Assembly: GCA_016699425.1 (NCBI GenBank)
Contig: CP064975.1
Coordinates: 859,957-923,956, forward strand
DNA: 64,000 nt
From: Candidatus Moraniibacteriota bacterium
GTDB taxonomy: Bacteria > Patescibacteriota > Minisyncoccia > Moranbacterales > UBA1568
Direction of reading: 5' to 3'
Below, one piece after another: positions 31,744 to 61,568 of this stretch (its first letter is position 1; every line of letters begins with the position of its first letter). The notes beneath the pieces are model-generated. The model saw only the letters and a program-made list of their open reading frames with translations, was not told the origin of the DNA and ran no database searches. Both the position numbers and the translations under genes were made by a program.

Positions 31744-31745
31744 CC

Positions 31746-31893: not shown

Positions 31894-32051
31894 GAGTAAG
31901 CGTTCATATACCCCTATTATCTCAATTTCTCCCATTGTGAGCAATCCTCGCTTGGCGGGACAGCTTTCAAACATTGCAGTGGGAACAGGCTTTCCCTGAT
32001 CTAGCAATTGCTACTCAACAAATTAATAGACTTTTAGGCCTGGTATAAAAA

Positions 32052-33833: not shown

Positions 33834-33893
33834 GGGGAACAGCTCTGCAGAAACTGTCCCGACTTCGTACTACTTTTTACTTTGATAGAATCG

Positions 33894-34460
33894 CTATTTC
33901 ACCTGAGTAAGCAGTTCGCTCAACCCTTCACTCCCAGACCATTTAGCAATCATTTTTCCCATCGCATCCACCTGCACCAATGTATGCTGGTAGGTGACGC
34001 CATACTGCTTCTTGAGGTCAGTGTACTTGTCATAATCCACATCAAGAACCAGTGTGTTCTGTGGGATCTGACTAAGATTGGCTTTGATATTAGCATCTAG
34101 AGCACGGCACGTCGGACACCAGGAAGCGCGGAAAAAAAGCACTACCTTGCCATCTTTGGCAAAAGCAATCTTTGATGCGTCGTATGAGACATACTGCCCC
34201 CCTTTGACCATCATCGCGTTGTCCTGTTTCATCATGGCATCTTCTTTGACCATTGTTTCTGCTTTCTTTTCCATCATGGCCTCAGGTTGCTTCATGACCT
34301 CTTCTTTTTTCTCCATCGCCACTTTTTCAGCCATGGCTTTTTCTTCCATCATGGCTTTGTCTTTCATGGCCTGCTGGTTAGATGTGTACCACCAACCACC
34401 AAGAACAACAACCACTCCAAGCGCAAGGGCTCCCACTATCATTTTATTCATATTTTTCAC
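33894..34460 (-). CDS. membrane-anchored thioredoxin-fold protein with methionine-rich (MxxM-type) segment
   Basis: SWCPTC thioredoxin motif; Met-rich region AMKDKAMMEEKAMAEKVAMEKKEEVMKQPEAMMEKK. Confidence 0.65.
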   Translation of the reverse strand: MKNMNKMIVGALALGVVVVLGGWWYTSNQQAMKDKAMMEEKAMAEKVAMEKKEEVMKQPEAMMEKKAETMVKEDAMMKQDNAMMVKGGQYVSYDASKIAFAKDGKVVLFFRASWCPTCRALDANIKANLSQIPQNTLVLDVDYDKYTDLKKQYGVTYQHTLVQVDAMGKMIAKWSGSEGLSELLTQVK

Positions 34461-34499
34461 CTCCTTTCATATTTATGATTTATCACTCTGTACGATATT

Positions 34500-34871
34500 T
34501 TAATATCGCTTTTCTGCATACAATCGACCTACAATTTTTGCCAAAACCATCCCGGTCAATACAAACGGTAACCATGGATCAATCTTATGTGATAATGCTT
34601 GAACAATAATGCCCATAAGGAGAAGAGCTCCTCCAGCCGTATAAGCAAAACGAGTACCTATGAAACGATGGAGTTGTTCACGTTCATCCACGACGAGCTC
34701 CTTCCAAAGAAACATAGCAAAAAGAGCAAATAGCGTCACAATTAGACCGAGCAGTGTCATATGAAAAGCATCCGTCATCCAAAAGCCAAACGGATTAGCA
34801 AACCAAACGAGGAAAATTACAAGTAATACCGCTACGGCCGTTTCCGAAAAAATTTTCGACATCATACTCAT
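34500..34871 (-). CDS. small polytopic membrane protein
   Basis: 123 aa, 4 TM. Confidence 0.45.
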
Positions 34872-35077
34872 GACTTTTTAATGGTGAATATTTTCTCCAC
34901 TGGAACACAAAAAAACTGAGCGATTTTCATCGCCAGTAAAACAGAGGGGGTATAATTTCCTTTCTCAAGCGCAATAATAGTCTGCCGTGTAACGTTTACG
35001 GCCAGAGCCAACTCTTCTTGCGTCAGCCCCCGTAGTTTCCGCAAGTTTTCTATACTATTTTCAATTATTTCCTGCAT
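34868..35077 (-). CDS. XRE-family HTH transcriptional regulator
   Basis: [27 protein letters not shown]. Confidence 0.75.
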
Positions 35078-35177
35078 ACGATATGTAAAACTGACTTTAC
35101 ATTTCTATTTTAGACTAACAATACAATATGTCAAGCTTACTTTACATTTTAATTCCATAGTTCGAATCCCGTTTTAG

Positions 35178-35248
35178 ACATCAAAAAAGAGGCTCTCTCA
35201 AGCCTCCAAAAGCGACCACTCTCACAGCATGTGGTGTTCTGAAACACG
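35178..35248. repeat. att-like direct repeat copy C (left arm + core)
   Basis: identical to left 70 bp of copy B. Confidence 0.8.
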
Positions 35249-35500
35249 ATCTTCAAGATGAAGACGATGAGCCAGGAACGTGGTTGAAGTCAGTTAAAGA
35301 ACGAGGGCGACCGTATGACCTATCCTCATTGATCCCTCTTTCAATCACTGTGAACAACGCTCGTTGAGCGAAGCCTCCGAGCGTTCGTGTGGGAGCAAAC
35401 TTTCTCGGTCTGACCGTTTTACACCGAAAAATACAATGAGATCCTCGCGCTCATTGAAAAAAATGGGGCATTCCCATCGATGGGAGTGTCGGTCGACCAC

Positions 35501-36004
35501 CTACAGTATCTGCCCAACGATCACGACATAATTGTGACCATATTTCTTGGCACATTTAGGACAGGTAGTATACCACAGGTACCTTTTTTTGATCGAATAG
35601 CCTTTGCTTAGCGTAGTGTTCTCAAAATCTTTCATCCACGTGCCGGTCTCTTTGAAGTTCCCCTCATAGACCTTGCTGAAATATTTCCCACTCATAATTA
35701 CGTTTTCCGCGTCGGATATCTCTTTATCCACCGCCAGATACAAATCCATATTCCATTTTGATGTATGGTCAGATAAACATATATATTCAGGGGTTTGTGC
35801 ACCAGCGTTCTCTACTTTCCCGGTGATTCTCTTCATCACTTGGCCGAAATTAATCGGCATATAAAACACAGTACAAACTTTGTCTTTGATGAATCGCTTA
35901 TTCTCCCAACTAAATTCTTTGTTGTCCCAAGGTGTGGGATCAAATCTGAGGCAACATTCTTCCTTCTGGTTATTCACATATTTGTCGATTAAGATATTAT
36001 TCAT
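35501..36004 (-). CDS. hypothetical protein, AT-rich
   Basis: 167 aa ORF with C-terminal Cys pair (CPKC); no family recognised. Confidence 0.45.
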   Translation of the reverse strand: MNNILIDKYVNNQKEECCLRFDPTPWDNKEFSWENKRFIKDKVCTVFYMPINFGQVMKRITGKVENAGAQTPEYICLSDHTSKWNMDLYLAVDKEISDAENVIMSGKYFSKVYEGNFKETGTWMKDFENTTLSKGYSIKKRYLWYTTCPKCAKKYGHNYVVIVGQIL

Positions 36005-36221
36005 AGCATTCGCTAAATGTGATTAGATTCCTCCCTCCCAACCGAAAAATGAAAGGGATACATTTCACCGCTATTATACACCCAGATTCCGATCGACTCC
36101 TCGGAGTACAAAAATGAGGTTTCCATTAAGCCTCAGGTACCAACCTCTCTCAGGACTTGCAGAGTCCCGGACCGCTTCACTCGGGGAATAACGCCGAGAC
36201 TGCTATACCCGCGCGCCCTGA

Positions 36222-36272
36222 GCCATCTGCATGCGGGACATGATTTCCTAGTTCACGCTCCGGGCATCGCGA
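36222..36272. repeat. degenerate duplicate of the 3' end of the T4CP gene (in-frame TAG)
   Basis: gccatctgcatgcgggacatgatttcctAgttcac...ccgggcatcgcga vs 36833-36883. Confidence 0.8.
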
Positions 36273-36326: not shown

Positions 36327-36764
36327 CTACAACTGGTCGATTGCGTTGCGCAATTCTGCCACCAGGGACTGAAGCTCGCCATCGGACATGATCGCTCGGA
36401 CACCATGCGCGTGGTCCAAGTCACCGAGACGGATATCAGGGATGAAGTGATAGTGAAGGTGTTCGACGCTCTTACCACTCCCCATCCCCTCCCGAACCAT
36501 GAGCGTAAAGCTATCATACCCGAGATAACGGAGAAGACGAGCACTCTGGTGAGCGAGGTCCTGGATATCGGCAAGCTCCTCCGGACTGAGTTGGAGGAAC
36601 GATTTTTTGTGCTCATTCGGGACGATCAGTAAGTGATGCTTGTGATACGGGGCCAGCGCGTACGTGACATAGGCGGTTTTGTTTTCGAAGAACCTACGGT
36701 CATCCGATGCACAAAACGGGCAGGTTCCTGGAGGCAATGCGTCGATATAATCAGAATATCTCAT
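36327..36764 (-). CDS. HIT-family hydrolase (second copy in window)
   Basis: HLHYHFIPD histidine triad; CPFC zinc motif at N-terminus. Confidence 0.75.
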   Translation of the reverse strand: MRYSDYIDALPPGTCPFCASDDRRFFENKTAYVTYALAPYHKHHLLIVPNEHKKSFLQLSPEELADIQDLAHQSARLLRYLGYDSFTLMVREGMGSGKSVEHLHYHFIPDIRLGDLDHAHGVRAIMSDGELQSLVAELRNAIDQL

Positions 36765-36813
36765 AGAAACACAGGTTACTCTTTACCTTGATTCATCTCC
36801 GATAGACTCGCTC

Positions 36814-39306
36814 CTATACCTTGGCACCTTCGGCCATCTGCATGCGGGACATGATTTCCTGGTTCACAATCCGGGCATCGCGACCATAGCGCAGGCGCGA
36901 GAGTTCCTTCAAGGCGTTAGCGACTTCTTGGTCACCCGATGTCGGCGGGTAGGTCTTCAAATTGAACGGCTTGGTCAGCTCATTGTTCATGAGAAGCCGA
37001 GCGAAGGCCTGATAGTTATCGACGTTTACCATGTCGTGAGCCGTGAAGACCGGCGCAAACTGTTTCTCGAGAAACTCCGAGTCCTCGGGGCCAACCCGGA
37101 ACGCGACAAGCGAACCGACATTGCCGAAAACTGCCTTGGAGATCTCTTCCTTCAGCTGTCCGATGAATTGATGAGCAAGGATAAGGACGAGCCGATACTT
37201 GCGCGCCTCGGAAAGGATCTGTGCGATGGACGTCGTAGTCACATTCTGGAACTCATCGAGGTAGAGGTAGAAATCGCGTCGCTCGGCCTCGGGCTGATCG
37301 ACCCGCGACAGAGCCGCCATGAGGATCTTGCCGACGACGACCATACCGAGGAGCCGGGCATTGATCTCCCCGATCTTACCTTTGGAGAGGTTGATGAGGA
37401 CGATTTTCCCCTGATCCATAAGCTCGCGGAAGTTCAACGCACTTTCCTGCTGCGCGATGATCGGCCGCATCATGTCGTTACTGATGAAGGTGGTCAGTTT
37501 TGACGTGATGTACGGAACCATATTGGCGAGCGCCGCCTCGCCACCCGCCTTCTCGGCCTCCTTCAGCCAGAAGTCACGGACGATCGGGTTCGTGCAGTGG
37601 GCCAGTTTATAGCGTCGGAATTCCTCATCCGCCAAGACTTTCGGGATCTCCATGAGAGTCGATCCACTCTCGGGGTGCTCCATGATGAGGAGCATGGCGT
37701 TGCGCATATACTGCTCAAACATCGGGCCGCCCGTCGCCTTCATATCGTACAACTGGTCGAAGATGCCGATCATCTCATTGATGACGAAGGTCTTCTGCTC
37801 GGGGTGATTGGGATCGTACTCGAGCATATTTATACCGATCGGCCGGGCGATATCGGCTGGATCAAACACGATGACATCCTCGGCACGCTCCTTCGGGATG
37901 GCCGTCAGGATGTCTTCGATCGCATCCCCGTGCGGATCGATGAAACAGAAACCTTTGCCGGACCGAGCATCCTTCTTCGCCATCTCCTGTAGGTAATTCG
38001 ACTTCCCGACACCGGTCTGACCGATCACATACATGTGGCGGCGGCGATCATTGTCGGTGATGCGGATCTCTGTCTTGGCATTTCGGTAGTCGTTGAAGCC
38101 GAGGAGGAGCCCATCCTTCGGGACATTGATCGGTGGTGGTGCAGCACCCGCTTTCAACCATTTGATCTTCGGCGTCTCGGTGGTCGAGATCGGGAAGTGG
38201 AAGAAGCTGGCGACTTCATCCGAAGTGAGGACCATAGCCGAATCCGGATCGAAATTGCGGAAGATGTAATGATAGGCAGCTTTCTTCGATGAGATCCGCT
38301 TTTTGACGCGGAAGCTGTTCACTTCCGGATTCTCAAACTGAGAGAACGCGTTCTCCAGATGGCTCAGGATAGCTTCGGCACGAACCTTTGTCGCAGCAGA
38401 GGCGAGGAGACGGATATTCACTGAGAATGCCGCCTGGCTTGCTTTCGCGTCGATCGTCTTCACGAGTTCTTGTTCTTCAGGCGTCAATACCACCGGTTTT
38501 TTCTCTTCCTGACTTTGAGTCTTCGCGTCCTGTTGGAGTACCACACGGCCCACGCCCTGCAAGGCCGACTTGCCAACCATCGCTGCAAATGACTCCGGGT
38601 GAGCATCCTCAAGCCGCTTACCTTCCTGCATCTTTTGCGCGATATGCCGACTCCCCTTGCGCCAACCGATGGGGGCCGGAGCGAGCACGATTTGGATGGC
38701 AGCACCTTCCGACACCGTCTCCAGTTTCGACAGCGCATTGGAAATCTCATTCAAGGGGTCAACCAGGAGCGTCTTGTAGGTTTTCAGCGGAAGCGCGAAG
38801 CCAGCTGAGAGTTCAAGGAGCGAGACGGCTGTCTCCCCCGCCGGAGAAAAAATCGTGTAGTCCGGCACCTTCTCAATGGCCGACTGCGGGAAAAAACTGT
38901 GAATCTGCTTCTCGACACTTTCCCGATAGTGCTTCGGAACGGACAGATAAAAGAAGATTTCCTCGCTCGAGGACGGATTGGCGATCTCGAAGACGATATG
39001 TGGTGGCTCGAAGAAAATATGCTTCCACCACGGAAAATGCCGCTTGAGCGACGCGAGCGAGGTGAGGAGCTGATCCATCGCCCGGATTTCCTCCCGCCAC
39101 TCCTCGGCCGTGTGCGCGGTACCCTCGGCGACTTGCTTCTTGCTCACCTGGACAGTCTCGAGATCGAGATTGAGCGATTGCGAAACTTCAAACCGTATCA
39201 GGAGAAAACTCTTCACGACGAGGAAAATCCCCGAAACAAAAGCGAGTAGGCCCGAAAGGTATGCCAACGGAAGGAGCACGACATTCAAATCGAATTCGGA
39301 GAGCAT
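36814..39306 (-). CDS. type IV coupling protein-like ATPase (VirD4/TraG/TraD family)
   Basis: Two N-terminal TM; Walker A VIGQTGVGKSN; Walker B FYLYLDEFQN; LILAHQFIGQL motif typical of T4CP. Confidence 0.7.
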   Translation of the reverse strand: MLSEFDLNVVLLPLAYLSGLLAFVSGIFLVVKSFLLIRFEVSQSLNLDLETVQVSKKQVAEGTAHTAEEWREEIRAMDQLLTSLASLKRHFPWWKHIFFEPPHIVFEIANPSSSEEIFFYLSVPKHYRESVEKQIHSFFPQSAIEKVPDYTIFSPAGETAVSLLELSAGFALPLKTYKTLLVDPLNEISNALSKLETVSEGAAIQIVLAPAPIGWRKGSRHIAQKMQEGKRLEDAHPESFAAMVGKSALQGVGRVVLQQDAKTQSQEEKKPVVLTPEEQELVKTIDAKASQAAFSVNIRLLASAATKVRAEAILSHLENAFSQFENPEVNSFRVKKRISSKKAAYHYIFRNFDPDSAMVLTSDEVASFFHFPISTTETPKIKWLKAGAAPPPINVPKDGLLLGFNDYRNAKTEIRITDNDRRRHMYVIGQTGVGKSNYLQEMAKKDARSGKGFCFIDPHGDAIEDILTAIPKERAEDVIVFDPADIARPIGINMLEYDPNHPEQKTFVINEMIGIFDQLYDMKATGGPMFEQYMRNAMLLIMEHPESGSTLMEIPKVLADEEFRRYKLAHCTNPIVRDFWLKEAEKAGGEAALANMVPYITSKLTTFISNDMMRPIIAQQESALNFRELMDQGKIVLINLSKGKIGEINARLLGMVVVGKILMAALSRVDQPEAERRDFYLYLDEFQNVTTTSIAQILSEARKYRLVLILAHQFIGQLKEEISKAVFGNVGSLVAFRVGPEDSEFLEKQFAPVFTAHDMVNVDNYQAFARLLMNNELTKPFNLKTYPPTSGDQEVANALKELSRLRYGRDARIVNQEIMSRMQMAEGAKV

Positions 39307-39327
39307 GCTGTTTGTTTTTGTTGAATC

Positions 39328-39732
39328 CTATTCTCCTTGGATCAGCCCCTTCGCCTTCAGTGCTTCATAGAACCGGTCGGCGAGTTCGTCATGCATCGTG
39401 TCGAGGACATAGAAATCATTCAGCTTGCGAGCGACTGCTACAGCGTGGGCGACACCCTTCACTTGTGCGAGCTCGACGAGTTGCGTCACGCGACTCGCTG
39501 CATCCATCGCCTGACCCATTTGTGCTGCGTCCGTATCGATATCATCCGTCGCCGCCGCTGACTGAGGGCTCGACTGAGAGAGAATCGCGGCGTACTTTTC
39601 GTTCACCTGCTCCGCGACCCGTTCACCCGTCCGCTCGACAGCAGGCGCACCCTCGGCTCCTGGATGCGCCGGGACGATCGGTTCGGCAGCAACAATCGGC
39701 GTTTCTTTTTTTCGAGAGAGAAATTCCCACAT
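39328..39732 (-). CDS. hypothetical protein
   Basis: ORF in operon. Confidence 0.45.
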   Translation of the reverse strand: MWEFLSRKKETPIVAAEPIVPAHPGAEGAPAVERTGERVAEQVNEKYAAILSQSSPQSAAATDDIDTDAAQMGQAMDAASRVTQLVELAQVKGVAHAVAVARKLNDFYVLDTMHDELADRFYEALKAKGLIQGE

Positions 39733-39736
39733 AGCC

Positions 39737-40039
39737 TTAGGCAGTAGCCTTGATGTCTTTCTTGAACTGATCGACGATGTTTTGGACGAAGGCGCTGTAC
39801 TCCGGTATGCGCTCGTCGAGGAATTTCCCGACTGCCGCCTCGGATGGTGCCGTCTCGATGAGTGCTTCGTAGTCCGTCATCCCCTGTTCGCCGAGCCGCT
39901 CCATTGTTTCCATAAAGATGCGTTTCAGAAGTGCTTCGAGCATCTTGGCGAGGAGCTCTTCTTGCTTCGGCTTCGGCAAACCCGCGAGCGCGAGCGATTC
40001 GATGAGTTCCGCTTCGATTTTCGAGTAGTCGATATCCAT
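39737..40039 (-). CDS. hypothetical protein
   Basis: ORF in operon. Confidence 0.45.
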   Translation of the reverse strand: MDIDYSKIEAELIESLALAGLPKPKQEELLAKMLEALLKRIFMETMERLGEQGMTDYEALIETAPSEAAVGKFLDERIPEYSAFVQNIVDQFKKDIKATA

Positions 40040-40055
40040 AAGTATCTATTTTCTA

Positions 40056-43000
40056 TTAGTTTAGCATACGAAACCCGGGAATTTTCTTGCCTTCATGCCC
40101 CGCCAACGCCACGACACGGAGCACATACTCCTGGATCGACTCCCCGGTTCGGGCACGTGCGAGTTCAGTTCCGAATGTTTTCCCGGCTGCTTTCGAAAGT
40201 TTCGCGACCGTTTCCATCTGCGACCAGTGCAGTGGATTCTTCACCCGGTCATAAGATGAAAGCGGGTTCTTCACGAGTGCGTCGTGGTTCGACAACACAA
40301 CGGCTAGTTTCGCCTTCGCGAGTTCGGTCTGCGAAATCGGGTTGAAGTTCCGATCATACCCTTCAGTATTCATTACTTCATCCGTCAGAAAGATCTGCTC
40401 TGAGACATGTTTGAAGTTTCGGAAGATATCTTTCTGAGCGTCGGCTGGCAAGCTCTCGACATAGGTCATTACGTTGCCGGTCGGACTTAACAGTTCTGTT
40501 TCCGGACGAAGCTCCACAACGCCATCGACGGCATCATCCGAGACTATGACGGACTCGAGTCGACCAGCCGCACTGGCAGCTTGGCTTTCTTCAAAAGCCT
40601 TGACCAGACGTGGGTAAATGTCTCTGCCTCCCGCGGGTTTGCTCACAGTATCAGGTGTAATCCCGCCATCCTTCCCTGAAGATACATCGGCTGATGGTCC
40701 AGTTGGTGCCGCAACTTCGATCGGTGCACTACCCTTGGCTTCTTCGATAAGTTTGCTCATCTCATCTGCCGAGATGAGCTTGCCGATCTCGAGCTTGGCT
40801 CCCGCCTGGATATAGCTAGGAGAGAATTTCCCATCGGGACCCGCGACGAAACCGGCAGCGCGCGCCATATCCGGACTGGCATCGAGTTTCGCTTGCAGTT
40901 TCAACTCGACGAGTTTGGCAAACCGATCCGACGCACGCCGATCCATGTCCGGCACATCCTGGACCACACTCTTTGCCAGCTTCCAGATATTGTCACCGCG
41001 TTTCACCTCATGGGTCGAGAGGAAATCCTTCGCCTTCGGACTAACCTCTACACTTTGTCCGGCCGGGACTGCTGTTGCGACGGCTCCTGGCACCTCTGTC
41101 GCTGGTGACACGGAAGGGTTTGAAGTCACTTCACCGCCAGTCGGACCGCCGGCGACCGCACCCGCTCGAGTCTGTTCCACAACCGGCGCAGCTCCGGATG
41201 GAGGCGCCGCTGCATCAGATCCAGACTCTGAGACTGCTGCTGCCGGCACAGAAACAGCATCAGCTTTATCGACAAAAAACCCATGGGCGAAATGTGACGC
41301 CGCACCAGACCCTAGGACAACTCCTGCAAAGATCGCTCCTGATTTCCGGAGGAGTGCATTTCGTCGCCGTGCCCCTTCACCCCGCCGTGCCTTGGCTGCT
41401 TCGTCTTTCAAAAAAGCCTCGAGCAAGGAGAGATCCAATTTCCCGTCTCCTTCTTTCCCAGTAGCTATCGCCTCGACCGCTTTGGTCTCCACAGCATCTT
41501 CCATCTTCTGGAAAAACCCCGCCTGATCGGTTTCGACATTCACGCGCTTCTTCTCCCGACGACTGGCAGCATACTTGTCCATTCCAGCCTCAGCGACTAC
41601 AGCCAATCCTGCTCCGGCTGCAAGCCGTTTCAAAGCGAGGGCACCAATCGCGACCGATGCCACTCCTCCTGTGGCTGCCCCGAGCGCTACCGCCCCACCG
41701 ACAGTGACGGTCGCTGTCAAGAGATACTTGCCGTACTTCTTTGAGAACTCATTATTGGCCGTGCCAAGCTTTTCGATTCCTTGAACGGCCGCACCTCCCA
41801 TGATAGCCGACGCTCCAAGGAAATATTTGGCATAAGCCTTCCATTTCGCGGTCTTCTCACCTTCGACCTCTGCCTCCAGACTCCCGATAGTTTCCTTCCA
41901 GCGTGCATCTAACTTTTCCCCCAGCGGCTTCTTTTTCTGAACGTCACGCATCTCTTGCCGCGTTTTATAGATCTGGTCGCTCTCGTCGAACTGAACCTCG
42001 CAGATGAGTGACGCCATCTCGGGAGGAAGCTCCTGCACTGTCTTACCGGAATGCTTCAGCTTTTCGAGTTCCGCCGTCTGGAGCGCCAGGACCGCCTGGT
42101 CGTACGTGGAATGGAAGGCTCGGATATCATGATCATCGGACTCACGATGTCTCAGCGTACGAAATGTCTGCATCAGTTTCTTCCAGGTACTCCCTTGCGA
42201 TTCCTCGGCGACGATGAATGCCGTCCGCGCGGCCGTCACCGCTTCCCGGAGCTTGGCAATTTTAGCATCTTGCTCGGTCATGTCCGGCTTAGCTTCACCC
42301 TGTGCACCCAAGGGGGTGAGCGCCTCGACCGCCTGCCAACCCTCAGTCTGTGCCATTCTTTCCAGACCAGCTGCTCCCAAAGTACTAAAGCTCGAGTCAT
42401 CCTTTTCGTAGACCCAGTATTGATCCGATTTCTTTTCCACTCGTACCTCGCTCCCATTTGCCCTTCGGTAAGCGAGTTTGCTTCCAGCATCGAGAAGAAC
42501 GAGTGCCGCTGCGATATCCACCCCCTTCGGTATCGGTAGTGGTTCAGGCGTCGGCATTGGTTCAACTTTCGGGGCCACTGGCGGCTGTGGGAATGGCTCT
42601 GCTTGCGGGACCGTGGTCGCAGCATCTGGTTCGATCGGATCAGCTTTGGGTGTTGCCGCAGCCGCATCTGGACTCGGTGCCTGAGCCACCGGCACCGGGG
42701 TGGGTTCAATGTGTGGAGTCGCCACTGGTTCTACCGGCGCGACCATCTGGTGCAGACTATATCCATTGCCTATCAGCCCCTCAAGCCTTTTCAGCGTTAC
42801 TGTCTTTTCCTTGATATTTTCTCCCTTCGAACCATGGGTAGTTTCGATGATTTTTACCTTGTGAGCCTTTCCTGCATTGACCAATTCGATAATCCTGATT
42901 GTATGTTCTGACCGTCCACCTGAAGCCTTTTCCCAGACCTGACCCACGACAAAGCCCGAGGCTTCAACCACTCCTTCTATGGATGCCTTCGGTTCCACGA

Positions 43001-43823
43001 CGGCAGCCGGCGGAGTCGCTGCATGAAGTGCAGGCGCGGTAACGACATCGCTTTTTGTATCAGAAAGCTCTGCTAATTTTTCCAAATAGACCGTTTGGAT
43101 CTCAGCTTGCATTTCGTATGCCCCTTTCTCGACGGCCTTGGCAAAATGGGAACCCGTAGAAACAGCATATTTCCGCAAGAGAGCCTTTAAAGGTTTACCC
43201 ACAACAAAACATGGTACCGTGGTCCATCTGCCATTCCCACTAGCTTCATTTTTCAGGGAATACAGCTCAGACAAGGTATCCGCGGCCTTCATTCTCGCTA
43301 TCCAGTCATCCTTTTGTCGTGAGAGCTCGTCGAGTATTTCAGCGACTACCCTTTCCCGTGAGGCTTTCGCATCGATGTCTCCATCTAGTACCGAAGAAAC
43401 GACAGAGCTACCGTCACCTCTTCCTGGAGAATCTTTCTCTTCGTCTGGCTCTGCGACGCCGGGGGAAAGGCTCGGATCCGCGGCGTCTACTTCCCCTTCT
43501 TCGGGAAAAACGTCGAGTGCGTCTTCTGTGGAACGTCCGGCAACACGTGCATTCGCTGCCATTTCTCGCTCTGTTTTCTCTACTTGAGCCTGATCATACC
43601 CAAATGGACTCACATCCCTTTTATCCTCATCCAATTTTTCCAGGTATTCATCTATTTCCTTTTGAGTAGGCTCCTGCTGTACCGGTGGCACAGGATCCGC
43701 CACCGCAGGAGTAACGGTTTTTGATTCGATCGCAGCTAATTCCTCCGCCAGAAATTTATCGATTACCGCCTGAGCATTCGGCAGCGCCTCGACACTTCCA
43801 TTGATTGTGGGGTTTGGTTCCAT
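40056..43823 (-). CDS. giant (1255 aa) polytopic membrane protein with Pro-rich linkers and a LysM-like domain
   Basis: Gly/Ala-rich TM cluster mid-protein; HEVKRGDNIWKLAKSV LysM-like. Confidence 0.6.
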   Translation of the reverse strand: MEPNPTINGSVEALPNAQAVIDKFLAEELAAIESKTVTPAVADPVPPVQQEPTQKEIDEYLEKLDEDKRDVSPFGYDQAQVEKTEREMAANARVAGRSTEDALDVFPEEGEVDAADPSLSPGVAEPDEEKDSPGRGDGSSVVSSVLDGDIDAKASRERVVAEILDELSRQKDDWIARMKAADTLSELYSLKNEASGNGRWTTVPCFVVGKPLKALLRKYAVSTGSHFAKAVEKGAYEMQAEIQTVYLEKLAELSDTKSDVVTAPALHAATPPAAVVEPKASIEGVVEASGFVVGQVWEKASGGRSEHTIRIIELVNAGKAHKVKIIETTHGSKGENIKEKTVTLKRLEGLIGNGYSLHQMVAPVEPVATPHIEPTPVPVAQAPSPDAAAATPKADPIEPDAATTVPQAEPFPQPPVAPKVEPMPTPEPLPIPKGVDIAAALVLLDAGSKLAYRRANGSEVRVEKKSDQYWVYEKDDSSFSTLGAAGLERMAQTEGWQAVEALTPLGAQGEAKPDMTEQDAKIAKLREAVTAARTAFIVAEESQGSTWKKLMQTFRTLRHRESDDHDIRAFHSTYDQAVLALQTAELEKLKHSGKTVQELPPEMASLICEVQFDESDQIYKTRQEMRDVQKKKPLGEKLDARWKETIGSLEAEVEGEKTAKWKAYAKYFLGASAIMGGAAVQGIEKLGTANNEFSKKYGKYLLTATVTVGGAVALGAATGGVASVAIGALALKRLAAGAGLAVVAEAGMDKYAASRREKKRVNVETDQAGFFQKMEDAVETKAVEAIATGKEGDGKLDLSLLEAFLKDEAAKARRGEGARRRNALLRKSGAIFAGVVLGSGAASHFAHGFFVDKADAVSVPAAAVSESGSDAAAPPSGAAPVVEQTRAGAVAGGPTGGEVTSNPSVSPATEVPGAVATAVPAGQSVEVSPKAKDFLSTHEVKRGDNIWKLAKSVVQDVPDMDRRASDRFAKLVELKLQAKLDASPDMARAAGFVAGPDGKFSPSYIQAGAKLEIGKLISADEMSKLIEEAKGSAPIEVAAPTGPSADVSSGKDGGITPDTVSKPAGGRDIYPRLVKAFEESQAASAAGRLESVIVSDDAVDGVVELRPETELLSPTGNVMTYVESLPADAQKDIFRNFKHVSEQIFLTDEVMNTEGYDRNFNPISQTELAKAKLAVVLSNHDALVKNPLSSYDRVKNPLHWSQMETVAKLSKAAGKTFGTELARARTGESIQEYVLRVVALAGHEGKKIPGFRMLN

Positions 43824-43827
43824 AGTA

Positions 43828-45519
43828 CTAGGATTTGTTCACAGGTTCTGCTGCCATCAATTCTCCCATAAGTGTCTCCGTATCGGAAGAAGTAAGTTCA
43901 ATCTTGTCTATCACCCGCGGTATCTTTGCCAAGAGGAATGTTCTAAGTGCCTGTGAAATCTCTGGTGCACACTCCGCAGGATCTTTTTTGTTCGCCCGCA
44001 ATAGCCCTTCGAGACGAGAGACGAAGCCGGCCTTCAATAAGAATAGTTCTCGCCGCAATCGGCTCTGATCCGCCGAACGTTCCCACTCCGTCAAATCCTT
44101 GAGATCGGTGATCGGACGACCGGTTCGGAACTCTCTCACATTCGTCGTCGGCTCTGGCTCAACATGATCCGTGTCTGGCTGATCCTCCACCAGAGGAGGT
44201 GCTGTCACTGGATCAGACTGATCCGGCGCATCTGGCTCTCTTTGGGCATCAGCCTTAGCGGCAGCAGGCTCGGTGGCCACTGCAGCAGCAGCTGACTGGT
44301 CCTCGACAACCACTGGTTCTCCAACCGAGACGGCAGGTGCGGCTTCTGCCGATGCTCCAACTACAACTGGTTGAGGCGTCTCCTTTTCCAAAGCAACGAG
44401 CGTATCAGGTGATGTTTTTTTCCTTTCCTGCGCATCTCTCGACTTTTGCCACGTCTCACGCAATTTTGGCGCAGCTTTCTCCGCTTTCATGACCCACTTC
44501 TCCATTGGAACGAGTACATTTGTTTCAAAATGTACTCGTTTGTCGGCATTCCATTTCTTCGGATCAGTGCCCGATTTCAACCACTCTCCCGCTTTCATCA
44601 TCGGGAGATCACCCTTCCACCCCTTCCTGATTGCATGTAAGAGATAGTCTTTAGGAAATCCTGAATGAAGCGTCTTCCATCGTGCAGTGAGCTCCCCCAG
44701 CTTCGCGACTTTTTCCTCGATACTCTCACCAGGCTCAACTTCAACCGACTGCACTAATGGTCCGTCCTTACTCTTTTCCCCTTCCACATTTCTGCTCAAA
44801 GACACCGCGCTTCCCTCACGCCCTCGCCGTGACCCAGGTTTACGATCTTCTTCTCTTCCAACGGACGGGCGAGTAGGCTTCAAACTTGCAGCCTGACGAC
44901 TGTCTTTCGATTTTTCCTCTTGACGAGCCGATTCGATCGCTGCTTGGATCGCCTTGATATAGTCTTCAAAATTCACCTGGACCGTCCGGAGGGTATCAAT
45001 AGCATCCAAGTAAGCTGCCGAACGATTCACTTCCGATAAGTCTCCAGGTTCGAGATACGGTGCAATTGATTGCTTTGCCTTTTCAAGGTCGGCCCTGACG
45101 GAATCCTGGAAATTCTGACCATTGATATCCAGCTCTGCTTCAGGGTGTTCCAATGCCAAGGCCATTAAGAGGGTATGTGCCTTTTCAATATTGTCCATCA
45201 GTTCCTGAGGATTGTGTCCTTTCTCGTTTCGACCCTCCACCTGTGTCTCAACCGAAACTAAGGTCGACGTCTCAGCCCACGTTCCCAAACCGCCCCGATG
45301 ATGGATTGCCCGTCCTGAAACTGGTCCACCTTTCCCTTCACGCTTTTCCCTCTCCGGTTTCCCTTCTGGTGCTCTCCGTCCTGATTTACTGTCAGCCGAA
45401 AGAACCGAATCAACAACTTTCGGTTCCTCTACGCTTGGAGCCTTGAGGATCACTCGTCCCGCAATCGCTCCCTTCAATTTTTCTGCAAATGGACTAGCCA
45501 CCAGCTCTGCCATAATCAC
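43828..45519 (-). CDS. hypothetical protein (563 aa, soluble, charged)
   Basis: ORF, first gene of operon. Confidence 0.5.
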   Translation of the reverse strand: MIMAELVASPFAEKLKGAIAGRVILKAPSVEEPKVVDSVLSADSKSGRRAPEGKPEREKREGKGGPVSGRAIHHRGGLGTWAETSTLVSVETQVEGRNEKGHNPQELMDNIEKAHTLLMALALEHPEAELDINGQNFQDSVRADLEKAKQSIAPYLEPGDLSEVNRSAAYLDAIDTLRTVQVNFEDYIKAIQAAIESARQEEKSKDSRQAASLKPTRPSVGREEDRKPGSRRGREGSAVSLSRNVEGEKSKDGPLVQSVEVEPGESIEEKVAKLGELTARWKTLHSGFPKDYLLHAIRKGWKGDLPMMKAGEWLKSGTDPKKWNADKRVHFETNVLVPMEKWVMKAEKAAPKLRETWQKSRDAQERKKTSPDTLVALEKETPQPVVVGASAEAAPAVSVGEPVVVEDQSAAAAVATEPAAAKADAQREPDAPDQSDPVTAPPLVEDQPDTDHVEPEPTTNVREFRTGRPITDLKDLTEWERSADQSRLRRELFLLKAGFVSRLEGLLRANKKDPAECAPEISQALRTFLLAKIPRVIDKIELTSSDTETLMGELMAAEPVNKS

Positions 45520-56716: not shown

Positions 56717-57589
56717 TCAAAGCTGATTCGCTATCTTCTGTTGTAGTTTCCTCCCATTCCCCCACCCAAGCATTCCGAGGTACGAAGCTACTGTTTCTTC
56801 TTTTCCTCCAGTGGCCTCCACTCGTCGCAGCATCCGCCGCTTCGTCACCGTCCGGAGTACTCGGTGATCCGAGAAATGCACCCAGCCGAGGAAATCCACT
56901 CCGCTTGCGACAGTTCTGATGAACACCTTGTCGGGGTGGAGCTCGAGTCGAAGATTGAGTCTGAGAAACGCATCCATCAGAATGAGTATATTTTTCAACT
57001 CATTTTCATTCTTGGAAAATACGACGAAATCATCTGCATACCGGATGTAATATTTCGCTTTCAGTTGCTGTTTCACAAACTGGTCGAGCTCGTTGAGATA
57101 GATATTGATGAGGAGTTGCGAAGTCAAATTGCCAAGCGGAAGCCCTCGGCCAGGTGTCCCCGAATCAAAGCTGGTGATGACTCTTTCCAGCAGCCAGAGC
57201 GTATCGGGATCAGCGATGTGTTTTTTGAGGATACCTATGAGCACACCCTGGTCGACCGAGGCGAAGCATTTCCTGATATCGCCCTTCAGCACCCAGACCG
57301 TCCGAGTGTGATTGTTCGAGACCTTCCGACCAAATGTCCGAAAACGATTGAGGGCTCGGTGTACTCCCTTCCCAATCCGACACGAATACGAATCAGCGAT
57401 GAAGGTCCGGTCAAAGCATGGATAGAGGGTACGATAGATCGCATGATGAAGGAGTCGGTCTCGCACTGACGCCTTGTGGATATCTCGCGGTTTCGGATCA
57501 TTCACCCTGAAGGCCTGGTATGGGCCGTGCGTATAGGTTCTCGTCTTGAGTGATTCATGGAGAGCGATCAGATGATCCATGAGATGCAA
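56717..57589 (-). CDS. DGR reverse transcriptase (track ORF from TTG; conserved N-terminal motifs continue in frame upstream to ~57725 through a G9 tract)
   Basis: YADD box (YIRYADDFVVF); DGR-specific LPLGNLTSQLLINIY; TYTHGPY; upstream in-frame IISIDNLLLAWTEFKRGKTKKR matches DGR RT N-terminus. Confidence 0.88.
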   Translation of the reverse strand: MHLMDHLIALHESLKTRTYTHGPYQAFRVNDPKPRDIHKASVRDRLLHHAIYRTLYPCFDRTFIADSYSCRIGKGVHRALNRFRTFGRKVSNNHTRTVWVLKGDIRKCFASVDQGVLIGILKKHIADPDTLWLLERVITSFDSGTPGRGLPLGNLTSQLLINIYLNELDQFVKQQLKAKYYIRYADDFVVFSKNENELKNILILMDAFLRLNLRLELHPDKVFIRTVASGVDFLGWVHFSDHRVLRTVTKRRMLRRVEATGGKEETVASYLGMLGWGNGRKLQQKIANQL

Positions 57590-57742
57590 TTCAAACTCCT
57601 GGACGTCTCTCTTCTTGGTTTTTCCCCGTTTGAACTCGGTCCAGGCGAGGAGAAGGTTATCGATGGAAATGATATCATCATAGGTGATATCTAATTTCCT
57701 TTTCTTCGCATATGCCTCAAATGACGCCCCCCCCCGAAGCTC

Positions 57743-58087
57743 TTGCCGATTCTTGAGAAACTAAAGATTGCATACGCTTTGTGGTATAGCTTTTTGCTTA
57801 TCCTACCAAAAACCCATCGGCATTCGCTCGGATCGAGAATTGATGATTTGTTTGTTGAGACAATCGAGGGAATAGCCACCGCAGCTTTTCTCTCGCCAGT
57901 GGAGAAACTTCCCTATGTGAAGTATGGGGTGAGAAAGCTCGACACCCTCAAGATACTCCTCATGATCCTCTGGGAGACCAAGTCACTGGATGACAAGAAA
58001 TATATCGCTCTTTCGGAGAGACTGAATGAGATAGGCAGAATGCTCGGCGGCTGGCAAGGACAGCTCCAAAAGAAAACTCTCCCGTAG
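57743..58087 (+). CDS. avd: DGR accessory variability determinant (Avd); TTG start right after C9 tract
   Basis: PKTHRHSLGSRIDD and C-terminal NEIGRMLGGWQGQLQKK match Avd four-helix-bundle family hallmarks. Confidence 0.8.
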   Translation: MPILEKLKIAYALWYSFLLILPKTHRHSLGSRIDDLFVETIEGIATAAFLSPVEKLPYVKYGVRKLDTLKILLMILWETKSLDDKKYIALSERLNEIGRMLGGWQGQLQKKTLP

Positions 58088-58106
58088 AAGGAGAGAATGA
58101 AGAGAC

Positions 58107-58260
58107 TGGCGAGACGGGGAACGCGAAGGCTCCATCATCGTTCCAGTTGTTGCCCGGGTTATCGTAGTAGGCATTCACCTGCTGCCCATCGTCGTTACGG
58201 TTCGATTCGAGGATGTTCGGGTTACCGTCGGAAATGTATATTCTGCCACCTATACCACCA
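58107..58260 (-). repeat. DGR template repeat (TR), Asn-codon rich
   Basis: ~150-bp copy of target 3' end; 19 of ~23 mismatches are TR-adenines (coding sense); reads NAYYDNPGNNWNDDGAFAFPVS. Confidence 0.85.
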
Positions 58261-58627
58261 CCCGTTGACTACTCGCCGGGTTGAATCGTATCCGGTATCT
58301 CCAATACCTTAGCAGAATAGACCAAGTATCTTCATTTTTTAACCCTTCAACTTGCTCAGGGTCATCCTGAGTCTTTTATCGAAGGATGAAGTGTCTGCAC
58401 AAGCCACTCTCTTTGAAGCCGTAATCGCAAAGACTCTCGGCTTGTGGATACTGGATTCGGCCGCGGAAAACCGTAGTCGCCCGCAGATTCGCTTACTACC
58501 AATTTCAGTATATCAAAATAATAAATTTGAAGAAAATGTAAACCCCGCACTACCGTTCGGTAAAATGCGGGGCCCAAGGACTAAGTATCAAGGGTCTAAG
58601 AGACCAAAGGTACAGAGTCCGAAGTGC

Positions 58628-59335
58628 TTATTGCGAGACGGGGAACGCGAAGGCTCCATCATCGTGCCAGTAGTGGCCCGGGTAAGCGCAGTAGGCAAGC
58701 AGCTGCTGCCCAACGACGTACCGGTACGAAGCGAGGAAGTCCGGGCTACCGTCGGAATCGATGATGGGTTCGTGGGGCACGGCGACGTAGTAGATGCCCC
58801 AGCGCTCCAGTTGCTCATCAGAAATCGCTTCCCGGATGAGGAGTGCCAGTTCACCGCGGAGGTCATTAGACTTCCCGTAGTCGCGCTCACCCCTTGCCCG
58901 TAGGTTGGCAGTAGTGCGCTCGGTATCGGTATCGAACTCCTTCTTGCCGAACAAGAGCGCAACGGTGTATTGCTTACCCGGCTCCAAGCGATGCTTCTCG
59001 TTGTAGTCGGGCTTGCCGAGGATATCTCTCGCCCATTTGGTGAAGTTCATCCCGCCAGTTTCGCCGTGTTTGGACCACTCCTCATTCGTCCAGCCACGGC
59101 CGGTCAGAGTGACGAGGATACGGCCGTGCTTGTCGGTCTTGTAAAGCGGGCCGAGGCCGAGGAGCTTGCGGAACTCGTCACGCGGCGGAATAGTTCCCGC
59201 CACGCAAGCTTCCGCGATATCCGCGATCCTGCCTTCGCCCAGGAGCTTATCTTGCCAGAGCTCCGGGGTGACGCCTTTTTGCAGGAGAGTGTCGTGAAGC
59301 TTCGTAACTTGCGGGAATGAAATAGAGGTGCACAT
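58628..59335 (-). CDS. DGR target (variable) protein, VR at C-terminus
   Basis: 235-aa ORF; C-terminal ...LLAYCAYPGHYWHDDGAFAFPVSQ corresponds to TR; small hairpin gggtctaagagacc and terminator downstream. Confidence 0.8.
   Translation of the reverse strand: MCTSISFPQVTKLHDTLLQKGVTPELWQDKLLGEGRIADIAEACVAGTIPPRDEFRKLLGLGPLYKTDKHGRILVTLTGRGWTNEEWSKHGETGGMNFTKWARDILGKPDYNEKHRLEPGKQYTVALLFGKKEFDTDTERTTANLRARGERDYGKSNDLRGELALLIREAISDEQLERWGIYYVAVPHEPIIDSDGSPDFLASYRYVVGQQLLAYCAYPGHYWHDDGAFAFPVSQ
58630..58785 (-). repeat. DGR variable repeat (VR)
   Basis: Aligned to TR with adenine-specific substitutions. Confidence 0.85.
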
Positions 59336-59595
59336 TGCAGTCTCCTAACTATGCTAGTCCTTGCGGGTAGCCGCTATAAGCTCTCGAAAGATTCGAGTTT
59401 GCCAGAGCAGAGAAAGGCCTAGGAAAGCCACTTTCTGCTCTGGCAAAAATCATGATTTTTAACGAACAATCCATTATACACCTTTTTCCTGTTTCTGTCC
59501 AGGGTAATATATTCGAGCGCGAAAAAGAGGCTTTCTAGAGCCTCTTACCACGAGCTACACATCTACTCGCTATCCGGCTAGTGCGTGCCACCTCG

Positions 59596-59670
59596 CCGGA
59601 TGAAATCGTACGCCGCGAGGGCAGCGGTGACGCCGAGGCCAGCCGAGATGTTGTTCTGCTTCTCGTAATA
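59596..59670. repeat. degenerate duplicate of trxB 3' end (encodes ...NNISAGLGVTAALAAYDFIRRGGTH*)
   Basis: ~87% identity to 60660-60728. Confidence 0.75.
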
Positions 59671-59697
59671 CGTCAAAGCCGCCACCGCGCTTACTCC

Positions 59698-60318
59698 CTA
59701 TGCTTCGCTCAGACTGAAGTTCATCAACATCTTCTTTATATCTTCATCGTTTTTTTCAAAACCCGGGCGATACATCACCGCTTCGGAATAATCGACATCA
59801 TCAAAGTAAGCAAGCTGCGAACGGAAATTCTTTTCATTGAACTCTTCGCCGAAAATACTCTCCGCTCTGTCGGCGATTTCCCGTAACGAATGCCTCGTCT
59901 CCAAAATGAAACAAATGTCGACATAATCCTTCCATTTCGCTCTCCTGCCAAGCGCGTAGGCCTTCATCGATGCGAGTGTGAGAAGCTCCGGCAATCGGGC
60001 GGTGTCATCCCAGAGGACGGGGTATTCGAGAGCGAACGGGTATCGGAGAAACGTGAGCTTCACGCCGTCCGTGAGTACCGTATATTCTTCCGGGGTATCG
60101 ACGAGCGTCCGGATATTCTTTCCGAAAGCGATGATGTCTCGCCGGAGCGCATCGGTACGAAGAGGTTCCGCGGTGAAGAGATCGAAGTCGATGGATGCGC
60201 GGTGTCCGATATGGAGAGCTATCGCCGTCCCGCCCACCAGACCGAAATCAGTGCGAAACTTCTGCAGAAGCGGAAGTAAGGTCTTCTGTTGTTCCGAAAG
60301 AATGTCAGCGTGCAGCAT
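59698..60318 (-). CDS. nucleotidyltransferase, AbiEii/AbiGii toxin family (type IV TA)
   Basis: LVGGTAIALHIGHRASIDFDLFT motif; start chosen at MLHADIL; track ORF extends to 60462. Confidence 0.7.
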   Translation of the reverse strand: MLHADILSEQQKTLLPLLQKFRTDFGLVGGTAIALHIGHRASIDFDLFTAEPLRTDALRRDIIAFGKNIRTLVDTPEEYTVLTDGVKLTFLRYPFALEYPVLWDDTARLPELLTLASMKAYALGRRAKWKDYVDICFILETRHSLREIADRAESIFGEEFNEKNFRSQLAYFDDVDYSEAVMYRPGFEKNDEDIKKMLMNFSLSEA

Positions 60319-60575
60319 GGCGGGCAAAGTAGAGATCGAAATAGTGAGCAATAGCGGGGCGGTAGTTATTTCTCTTGCCTTTCCTTTGGGAAAAATACAC
60401 TTCGGCCACCCTCTGTATCCCGAGCAGTGCAATAAGCGCCCGGACATCACGCCAATCCCCATAATTTAGGGTATGCTCGACAATCGAAGCTTCGGATAGG
60501 CGTGAGGCATCGTTGACATACCACACGAGGTGCGGTCGGGACTGGATAAAGGCACTCAACGCAGTACTCTGCCTC
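60305..60575 (-). CDS. putative cognate antitoxin/partner (90 aa) of AbiEii-like gene
   Basis: C-terminal 90 codons of ORF 60305..60886 from MRQSTAL; 10-nt spacing to toxin start; family not recognised. Confidence 0.4.
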
Positions 60576-60641
60576 ATATGTTTCTCATTTTCTTCCTTTA
60601 GTATAGCAGAAAATGAGAGATTTTTCCTTGGGAGCACCGCT

Positions 60642-61568
60642 CTATTTCTTCTTCCCCTTCCGAATGAAGTCATAGGCCGCGAGGGCAGCAGTGACACCGA
60701 GGCCAGCCGAGATGTTGTTCTGCTTGTAGGGTGCATCAGTCGCATCGCCAGTCGCAAAGATACCGGGTTTCGAAGTCGTTGCCCGGCGTGTATCGAGGAT
60801 GATTTCCCCGCGCTCATTGAGCTCGAGCAGACCCTGTGCAAACTCAGTATTTGGCACCATGCCGATCTCGACGAAGACACCATCAAGCGCGATGTCCTTC
60901 ACCTCAGCTGTCGTTTTATCCTGGTACCGGAGCGCTTCCACCTTGGTCTCACCGATGATTTCCTGGGTCACGGCATTATAGATGACACTCACTTTGGGGG
61001 AGGCAAGGATCTTCTCCTGCGTGATCTTATCCCCCTTCAGCTCGCCGCCCCGAACGAACAGGACGATCTCATTGGCATATGGCAACAGGTCCTCGACTGC
61101 TTCCAAGGCTGAGTTGCCACTCCCGACGACTGCGACTTTCCTCTGCTTGAAAAACGGCGCATCACAAGTCGAGCAGTAAACGACGCCGTGACCGTTGAAT
61201 TTTTCTTCTCCCGGAACAGCCAAGTGGCGGTGCCGACCCCCGGTCGCGACGATGAGGGTTTTCGTGTCATAGCTGCCCTGATCAGTCGTGATGCGGTAGC
61301 CACCGGTCGGGAGCTCGGTCAGACCCGTCGCGCGCTCACCGGTTTTTATCTCGAGCCCTTCCTGAGCCCGCAAATGCTTTTCCAGTGCCTGACCGAATTC
61401 CCAACCAGCGATTGAGACAGTCCCAATCCAGTTTTCGATCGAGGCCGACACGACGGACTGACTCAGGAAGTTTTCCGTGATGAAAAGCGTTTTGATTTGT
61501 TTCCGCGCGGCATACACGCCGGCAGCAATACCCCCTGGTCCCCCGCCCACGATAATACAGTCATACAT
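60642..61568 (-). CDS. trxB: thioredoxin-disulfide reductase
   Basis: GGGPGG FAD motif, CSTC redox centre, GSGNSA NADPH motif. Confidence 0.9.
   Translation of the reverse strand: MYDCIIVGGGPGGIAAGVYAARKQIKTLFITENFLSQSVVSASIENWIGTVSIAGWEFGQALEKHLRAQEGLEIKTGERATGLTELPTGGYRITTDQGSYDTKTLIVATGGRHRHLAVPGEEKFNGHGVVYCSTCDAPFFKQRKVAVVGSGNSALEAVEDLLPYANEIVLFVRGGELKGDKITQEKILASPKVSVIYNAVTQEIIGETKVEALRYQDKTTAEVKDIALDGVFVEIGMVPNTEFAQGLLELNERGEIILDTRRATTSKPGIFATGDATDAPYKQNNISAGLGVTAALAAYDFIRKGKKK

Follow-up and report, generated by a model that had tools for sequence, protein, structure and literature searches.

The gene pair behind trxB

The present analysis concerns a 64,000-nucleotide stretch of the genome of Candidatus Moraniibacteriota bacterium (assembly GCA_016699425.1, contig CP064975.1, positions 859,957 to 923,956), called the window below, and within it a cassette of two small genes that lies directly 3' of trxB and is bracketed by two copies of the trxB 3' end. 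Homologous loci from other genomes and metagenomes are designated by L-numbers (L001 and so on). An earlier note, written from the sequence alone, had described the arrangement as an AbiEii-type toxin with a small partner, inserted without an integrase and with duplication of the trxB end. The features of the locus are listed below in the direction of transcription, with protein endings given up to the stop codon.

60642-61568, minus strand: trxB, thioredoxin-disulfide reductase, 308 amino acids (aa), intact (Pfam Pyr_redox_2, E 3e-38)
60660-60725, minus strand: repeat copy A, the trxB 3' segment still joined to the gene (repeat search; 60/66 identical to copy B)
60642-60662, minus strand: last six codons and stop codon of trxB, derived from the insert; the ending RKGKKK differs from the RKGG.. 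tails of close relatives
60600-60608, minus strand: extended -10 element TGCTATACT, putatively the cassette's own promoter, about 25 nt 5' of the small open reading frame (ORF) (read from the sequence)
60305-60577, minus strand: putative antitoxin, 90-aa DUF6922-family partner (weak match to PF21956, stronger in orthologues)
59698-60318, minus strand: putative toxin, AbiEii/MenT-type nucleotidyltransferase, 206 aa (PF08843, E 4.4e-10)
59662-59697, minus strand: 36-nt spacer from the toxin stop codon to copy B, the right end of the insert
59596-59661, minus strand: repeat copy B, about 22 trxB codons, the counterpart of copy A
59581-59595, minus strand: the displaced native trxB end ...RRGGTH, orthologous to RKGGTH in L001, RKGSTH in L082 and the RKGG.. 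tails of empty sites
59522-59546, minus strand: hairpin terminator native to trxB, now that of the toxin gene (read from the sequence)

The direct repeat (59596-59661 and 60660-60725) is 66 nt long with 60 of the 66 bases identical, and its gene-proximal end forms a 29-nt perfect core. The two copies are spaced 1,064 nt apart and only the two cassette genes lie between them. With a BLAST E of 3e-18, this repeat is one of seven direct-repeat families of at least 30 nt in the 64-kb window. The trxB-end repeat of about 75 bp described in the earlier note is thus present, with an identity over that exact 75-nt span of 83% instead of about 87%, and translation of the remnant gives the reading ...KQNNISAGLGVTAALAAYDFIRRGGTH before the stop codon, as had been stated. 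The cassette measures about 0.95 kb and has a G+C content of 50.5%, versus 56% in trxB. A TGnTAnAAT element occupies the position equivalent to 60600-60608 in every homologous cassette examined; a simple promoter scan did not call the TGCTATACT element of the window. At the other end, the 36-nt spacer holds no trxB homology 5' of copy B (shuffle p = 0.76). The spacer matches no locus examined, and no footprints of earlier target sites were found in the cassette junctions. In 8 other cassettes, the distance from the toxin stop codon to the downstream copy is 0-8 nt, versus 36 nt in the window.

The remnant tail of the window (59581-59700) is in frame with the toxin and separated from it only by the toxin stop codon, which is TAG at the trxB sites. 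The same holds for L001 (7859-7951), L082, L079 (5613-5675), L135 (2610-2861) and L131, and not for L101 and L095. Read-through of the stop codon, if it occurred, would join a TrxB C-terminal peptide to the toxin. An extension of the toxin by this route was considered and rejected: the frames agree in 4 of 6 independent events (binomial p ~0.1), and the agreement was therefore attributed to chance.

The start codon of the toxin gene (ATG, 60318-60316) precedes the stop codon of the partner gene (TGA, 60307-60305) by 11 nt, and the two ORFs overlap by 14 nt, where the earlier note had placed a 10-nt gap. The AbiEii assignment of the toxin was confirmed by Pfam, in which PF08843 reaches 40.3 bits against a cut-off of 22.5, over residues 20-96 only; the AbiEii models of PADLOC matched more weakly (E 5e-5 to 2e-3). 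Among 25 homologues including the window protein, residues G29, G30, S42, D44, D46, K119, R126, K130, D131 and D134 are invariant, and we take them to be those of the published GG...S/T.D.D and K/R..KD..D motifs (Dy et al. 2014, Cai et al. 2020). The AlphaFold2 (AF2) model of the toxin has a pLDDT of 93.9, and the top Foldseek matches in the PDB were H. pylori JHP933 (4o8s, 4ok0) and the M. tuberculosis toxins MenT4 (6y56) and MenT1 (8an4, 8an5), with E values of 3e-6 to 3e-4 and TM scores of 0.5-0.65. For the toxin, no family emerged from a sequence-profile search of the PDB, and NCBIfam yielded none for either the toxin or its partner.

The partner of the window matches PF21956 (DUF6922) with an E of 0.0025, which is below the cut-off, whereas 14 of 22 orthologous partners match this family, the best with an E of 1.4e-11. 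A homologous small ORF lies 5' of the toxin gene and overlaps it in 39 of 41 loci; the 90-aa ORF is conserved with the toxin, and lack of such conservation had been named beforehand as grounds for abandoning the interpretation. The AbiEi-like antitoxin for which a search had been suggested was not found, as the partner has no AbiEi match in Pfam, NCBIfam or PADLOC and, at 90 aa, falls short of the winged-helix N-terminal region plus C-terminal domain (about 200-300 aa) by which AbiEi proteins are recognised. Since the partner is DUF6922-like and not AbiEi, the gene pair is a DUF6922/short-AbiEii module, nearest in size to MenAT1, with a presumed toxicity and neutralisation.

An insertion relative to related genomes

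A scan of genome collections assigned the window to Candidatus Moranbacteria (CPR/Patescibacteria) and recovered the MurD-CsoR-trxB synteny at about 40 relative loci, among which the cassette and the second tail occur only in L001; a third lineage with the cassette behind trxB, L082-L085, was reached via the toxin protein. L003-6, L025, L039 and L041 have kept MurD-CsoR-trxB with a single tail and without the cassette, and their trxB proteins are 79-85% identical. These empty-site genomes include both closer and more distant relatives. Moreover, L041 and L006 have the same intergenic region directly 3' of trxB, followed in L041 by a homologue of the window's next gene, and this region, which holds the terminator, is also found directly 3' of trxB in L015, L016 and L037. 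Comparison of the regions downstream of trxB thus upholds the earlier claim of an insertion, as judged against related genomes.

The same loci indicate which of the two tails is native. The B tails of the window, L001 and L082 are orthologous (RRGGTH, RKGGTH and RKGSTH, then a shared GCYGGATAGCGAGTRG) and match the RKGG.. endings of the empty-site relatives. The A tails, which are joined to trxB, end in RKGKKK or RKG and group together. On these grounds, the downstream copy is the displaced original gene end, still joined to its original terminator and intergenic region. The upstream copy, for its part, completes a working trxB, the last few C-terminal codons of which are supplied by the insert.

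The codon differences between the two copies, counted between the repeat start and the Gly codon, bear on their origin. By inspection of the alignment, copies A and B of the window differ by 7 synonymous and 1 non-synonymous (conservative) changes; the counts are 5 and 2 in L001, and 8 and 0 in L082. They include AGA versus CGC (the same Arg), AAG versus AAA and GGG versus GGC. About 85% of the differences are synonymous, whereas neutral decay of a non-coding copy predicts about 25%, i.e. about three-quarters non-synonymous. Because the differences are nearly all synonymous, the copies come from two functional trxB alleles and not from a decayed duplicate. Both codon patterns occur in the native tails of relatives, GTG AGA AAG in L002 and L041 and ATC CGN AAA GGC in L003, which points to inserted DNA that carried the trxB end of another lineage. 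We conclude, from these codon patterns, that the inserted DNA probably brought its own version of the trxB end from elsewhere.

The comparison of L001 with L082 bears on mobility. Their trxB and MurD genes are about 80% identical at the nucleotide level, with 48-51% of four-fold sites differing, while their cassette genes are 97-98.5% identical with only 2-11% of four-fold sites differing. In a sliding window, identity rises from about 80% to 95-100% across the cassette alone, and the high-identity tract runs from inside tail A (at about GTCACC) to the first few bases of tail B. Between these limits, the two copies within a genome have synonymous variants in common that are particular to it, GCTGGCCTC in L001 and GCCGGTCTC in L082. 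Judged by these identities, the cassette has evidently moved recently between diverged lineages. Insertion-type homologous recombination, with repair of a gap or heteroduplex, would leave such a tract; the tract is also compatible with the replacement of an older resident cassette using both tails as homology arms.

Recurrence and the search for a recombinase

The absence of an integrase claimed in the earlier note held over the regions scanned: neither the cassette nor 43.8-64 kb contains an integrase or transposase, and none was found among the ten largest ORFs of 26.9-43.8 kb, a scan that left aside 39307-40055, the smaller ORFs of that region, positions 1-26 kb and the rest of the genome of about 1.2 Mb. 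The ORFs of 43.8-64 kb encode a MurA-like protein, MreB, two glycosyltransferases, HolB, FtsQ, two PMT-family proteins, the reverse transcriptase of a diversity-generating retroelement (DGR), MurD and CsoR; those of 26.9-43.8 kb encode a zeta/AAA kinase, hydrolases, APH, DsbD/thioredoxins, a TrwB/TraG-type ATPase and proteins without assignment. No terminal inverted repeats were seen at the cassette ends, and no junction motif or core is shared across 15 cassettes. The hallmarks of site-specific elements, integron cassettes and transposons (linked recombinase, att or attC core, inverted repeats, fixed short duplication) are in this sense lacking in the part of the window that was scanned. A scan of viral contigs with the toxin alignment returned no relatives, and there is thus no evidence for a phage vector.

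The parallel that had been drawn with a HIT insertion at 36.2-36.9 kb is real. It comprises the following features.

36811-36883, minus strand: copy A, the intact 3' end of the gene for an 830-aa TrwB/TraG/DUF87-type ATPase
36327-36764, minus strand: HIT-family hydrolase gene between the copies (PF01230/PF11969 on homologues; after the ATPase gene in L167-L171)
36200-36272, minus strand: copy B, a decaying ATPase-tail remnant with an in-frame TAG (73 nt, 85% identical to copy A)

The HIT remnant differs from copy A by 3 synonymous and 5 non-synonymous changes, among which a Gln codon has become a stop. It is the same in L169 and L170, about 65% decayed in L167 and absent from L168, and in the relatives examined the HIT gene always lies behind the same ATPase gene. 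Given a decaying remnant shared with relatives and a constant ATPase neighbour, the HIT event is old and vertically inherited. In the region of the ATPase gene (36814-45519), the upstream ORFs of 1255 aa and 563 aa have no Pfam match; together with the ATPase they resemble a type IV secretion or conjugation-like locus of Patescibacteria (PMC12102498).

A low-G+C island (29408-36272; 40-48% versus about 55%) holds two cargo blocks and no mobility gene. The first block (29534-31743) encodes a zeta/AAA kinase, a serine hydrolase and an APH phosphotransferase, and the second (32052-34871) a DsbD-thioredoxin fusion, a thioredoxin and a membrane protein. The blocks are bracketed by terminator-containing copies at 29408-29538, 31735-31908 and 35169-35247, which are 82-100% identical, and no tRNA or other RNA gene was found as the target of these repeats at 29-36 kb. 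From this layout, the island looks like the product of successive insertions at one site, each of which would have duplicated its target.

In Moranbacteria, cassettes of this family are present at four sites or more. Besides the site behind trxB (the window, L001, L082-85), they are found behind a 210-aa gene in L079-81, where 108 nt are duplicated at 86% identity (the last ~60 nt of the gene, its stop codon and the terminator), between the pilin and prepilin-peptidase genes in L086 and L172-174, where L172 duplicates 46 nt from the 5' end of the downstream peptidase gene, and at a further site in L175, which has no repeat. More distant metagenomic cassettes, 69 of which were testable, were examined for a direct repeat bracketing the cassette at E < 1e-3. 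Such a repeat was present in 15, or 14 of the 69 after removal of one simple-sequence repeat, and mock positions under the same test gave 0/46 and 1/126 (1/172 in total; Fisher p = 1e-7). The duplications range from 15 to 235 nt, and the sequence copied is a local one that differs from locus to locus, in most cases the end of the adjacent gene or a terminator. The longest, in L135 (235 nt), covers the last 78 codons of the upstream gene; those of L109, L122 and L144 measure 150, 112 and 62 nt, and in L131 a stop/start overlap is duplicated (43 nt). At other metagenomic loci the repeats span 15-35 nt and are frequently a terminator, and some loci duplicate intergenic DNA. The recurrence proposed in the earlier note is therefore supported by the HIT insertion, by L079-81 and by the metagenomic count, but the restriction to gene 3' ends is not, given the 5' end in L172 as well as the terminators and intergenic DNA. 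Since the duplications are not confined to 3' ends, the apparent targeting of gene ends may reflect selection for harmless sites.

Two further arrangements were noted among these loci. One gene upstream of its first cassette, L081 (3008-3855) has another, distantly related DUF6922/AbiEii cassette (24% toxin identity); the corresponding site in L079 (3800-4000), which is nearly identical in other respects, is empty. This second cassette takes the place of about 40 nt, among them the final codons of the 172-aa gene upstream, and 31-nt promoter-like repeats bracket it. In many more distant Moranbacteria, gdh (glutamate dehydrogenase) lies between CsoR and trxB and is bracketed by a 46-68-nt duplication of the trxB leader/start region (L019:4689-6009, L021:4538-5993); the architecture is the same, the cargo being of a housekeeping type and the duplicated end the 5' one.

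On the side of the cassette away from trxB, a complete DGR (56717-59335) adjoins it.

58628-59335, minus strand: DGR target gene
58633-58757: variable repeat, in the 3' end of the target gene
58109-58233: template repeat
57743-58087, plus strand: Avd-like four-helix protein
56717-57589, minus strand: DGR reverse transcriptase

Mismatches between template and variable repeat fall at template adenines in 17 of 19 cases. Involvement of the DGR reverse transcriptase in cassette insertion was rejected, because cassettes elsewhere have no reverse transcriptase nearby and the DGR-bearing L006, L015, L017 and L037 have no cassette. The intergenic region 59336-59580 (L001:7955-8103, L082:5712-5867) is 96% identical between the window and L001, whose core genes are about 80% identical. 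It contains a terminator, a promoter TGGACA-17-TATAAT (59501-59473) and a hairpin with 21-nt arms (59398-59447) and a loop of variable length. In L006, L041, L015, L016 and L037, weaker copies of the region follow trxB. Possibly the region serves the DGR target as a conserved leader or RNA element. Elsewhere in the window, a 16S rRNA gene is truncated by the window start, with its 5' part present (1-813, minus strand), and five tRNA genes (Glu, Trp, Thr, Tyr, Thr) lie at 13557-15272 on the minus strand; none of these is associated with the repeats studied.

Routes of insertion and known systems

Taken together, we consider it probable that the cassette represents an insertion with long target duplication, brought about by host homologous recombination of DNA that carried the cassette together with a foreign trxB tail; the recombination step is inferred and not shown. 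The incoming DNA would have consisted of the cassette joined to the trxB tail of another lineage, either as a circle released by repeat recombination in the donor or as a linear fragment taken up by natural competence. Host homologous recombination in an insertion-type (Campbell or ends-in) geometry would then integrate it at the trxB end. Once in place, the toxin-antitoxin (TA) pair would penalise loss of the cassette by recombination between the repeats. Such an addiction penalty might explain why the repeats are intact at addiction-type cargo while the old HIT remnant decays. More tentatively, the duplicate might serve as the homing device of the cassette: recombination between the repeats would free a TA circle carrying one host-gene end, RecA would re-insert it in a competent relative, and the toxin would kill the cells that lose it. 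We regard this extension as possible. If true, it would amount to self-propagating mobile elements that encode no recombination enzyme, and gene gain in the Patescibacteria, which are naturally competent and poor in transposons, could owe much to them.

Several observations weigh against insertion by host recombination. No flanking repeat was detectable in 55 of the 69 metagenomic cassettes, and in L131, L144 and L090 the flanking repeats are 100% identical, which fits a true target-site duplication equally well. Compared with the empty site of L079, the second cassette of L081 resembles a substitution of about 40 nt and not a clean duplication. The cassette of the window is 74% identical at the nucleotide level to those of L001 and L082, as diverged as the host genes; because the divergence from L001 is like that of core genes, part of the pattern could be due to a single old insertion, followed by gene conversion and, later, by the replacement of alleles. 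Finally, for a cassette to reach a new gene for the first time, a non-homologous step is still required that has no explanation so far.

A true long target-site duplication, in which both copies derive from the recipient's own tail through staggered breaks or replicative template switching and no arm is carried in, seems to us rather unlikely at trxB. It would suit the variable repeat lengths (15-235 nt), the lack of conserved ends and the three cassettes with identical repeats, and the mechanism is likewise unknown for the restriction-modification genes that show such duplications (PMC2853133). Yet the insert-side end of copy A continues to encode a trxB-like V/I-R-K-G past the limit of nucleotide identity, with codons that differ from those of copy B. 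The excess of synonymous differences is also far from what decay of a duplicate predicts, and the tract recently transferred between L001 and L082 includes 45 nt of trxB tail.

Integration by a tyrosine or serine recombinase encoded elsewhere, with the cassette as a minimal non-autonomous element whose attP mimics the trxB 3' end, comparable to SCC-type elements without an integrase or to cis-mobilisable ones, would recall the replacement of a 3' end by a surrogate with displacement of the original, which is the classic signature at gene and tRNA 3' ends. The 29-nt perfect core inside the repeat would also agree with it, and our view covers 64 kb of a genome of about 1.2 Mb. We nevertheless judge it improbable: the targets are unrelated and without a shared core, the repeats vary from 15 to 235 nt, the scanned regions hold no integrase and the ends no inverted repeats, and the inferred exchange points differ, at about position 31 in copy A versus about position 8 in copy B.

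There is little to recommend a single ancient insertion, inherited vertically, with copies kept alike by intragenomic gene conversion and nothing mobile today. The window, L001 and L082 do share the site, the cassette of the window is as diverged as core genes, and some synonymous sites group A with B inside each genome; but the cassettes of L001 and L082 are 98.5% identical versus 80% in the flanking genes, the part of copy B without a counterpart in copy A is equally well preserved, and the old HIT remnant shows what real decay looks like (a stop codon and non-synonymous changes). Mis-joining of strain variants of the trxB end is scarcely conceivable: metagenome-assembled genomes (MAGs) can collapse or chimerise near-identical segments, but at least five assemblies, made independently in different projects, show the same architecture, and both copies carry substitutions specific to the lineage, so that the artefact which the earlier note had foreseen as a possible objection is contradicted by L001 (an NCBI MAG) and L082-L085 (three JGI metagenomes and one Logan run).

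The closest known relatives of the gene pair are the type IV-like toxin-antitoxin systems AbiE (AbiEi-AbiEii of Lactococcus and Streptococcus) and MenAT (MenA-MenT of M. tuberculosis), which share with it the DUF1814/AbiEii fold, the GG...S.D.D and K...R...KD..D motifs and a small overlapping gene upstream of the toxin. MenAT1 is also similar in size, with a toxin of about 190 aa and a small antitoxin. In contrast, the antitoxin of AbiE is the winged-helix AbiEi (COG5340) and not a 90-aa DUF6922 protein, and classical AbiEii is longer than the toxin described here, of whose 206 aa the Pfam model covers only 77 N-terminal residues.

As to the insertion, genomic islands and SCCmec in rlmH, with its ccr-less derivatives, resemble the trxB locus in that a 3' end is present twice, the functional end comes with the element and the original one is displaced. 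Unlike them, the cassettes have no integrase or ccr in the scanned regions and no fixed attachment core, and show many unrelated targets and variable repeats. Campbell-type insertion-duplication has the predicted geometry, an insert bracketed by two copies of the homology, and depends on the host RecA, but it is employed in the laboratory, with homology of hundreds of bp. To our knowledge, it has not been documented as a natural route of integration with arms of 60-100 nt.

The best match is insertion with long target duplication, described for restriction-modification genes (Nobusato et al. 2000, Gene 259:99; Furuta, Abe & Kobayashi 2010, PMC2853133) and reviewed in PMC3874152. The criteria of PMC2853133 are repeats of more than 30 bp that align to one empty-site copy, an insert below 20 kb, no mobility genes and variable length; here we found a 66-nt repeat, empty sites with a single tail, a spacing of 1,064 nt, no mobility gene and lengths of 15-235 nt. 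In both cases a small unit free of mobility genes, often with an addiction-type cargo, sits between long variable repeats and leaves the neighbouring gene intact. In PMC2853133 the repeats often span the start or stop codon of the neighbour and the hosts are mostly naturally competent; Patescibacteria are likewise naturally competent and integrate DNA by homologous recombination (PMC10633639), so that the hosts are probably alike in this respect too. The cargo differs, restriction-modification genes there versus the DUF6922/AbiEii pair, HIT, gdh and other accessory genes in Patescibacteria. The authors suspected DNA breakage by the cargo and proposed a life cycle of invasion, amplification and release, the mechanism not being shown. 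In contrast to that suggestion, the cargo here is a non-nuclease TA pair or an ordinary gene, and nuclease activity of the cargo itself therefore cannot be required; moreover, one of the repeat copies at trxB would be an allele of the target that came from outside, and this points to host recombination guided by homology. The earlier interpretation is thus supported in its main elements, with the refinements that the partner is not AbiEi-like, that the preference for gene ends is not exclusive and that this type of insertion already has a name.

We found no published account of such insertions for toxin-antitoxin modules or for bacteria of the candidate phyla radiation (CPR), which is weak evidence of absence. 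Our results extend the architecture to a toxin-antitoxin pair and to ordinary accessory genes in CPR bacteria. A single cassette family with dozens of independent events offers a statistical and comparative handle on a mechanism that is still unsolved. If insertion by host recombination is true, short conserved gene ends would act as landing pads for selfish or defence cassettes across species that are 20% diverged. For annotation, remnant tails should be read as pseudo-fragments and the neighbouring genes as chimeric at their 3' ends.

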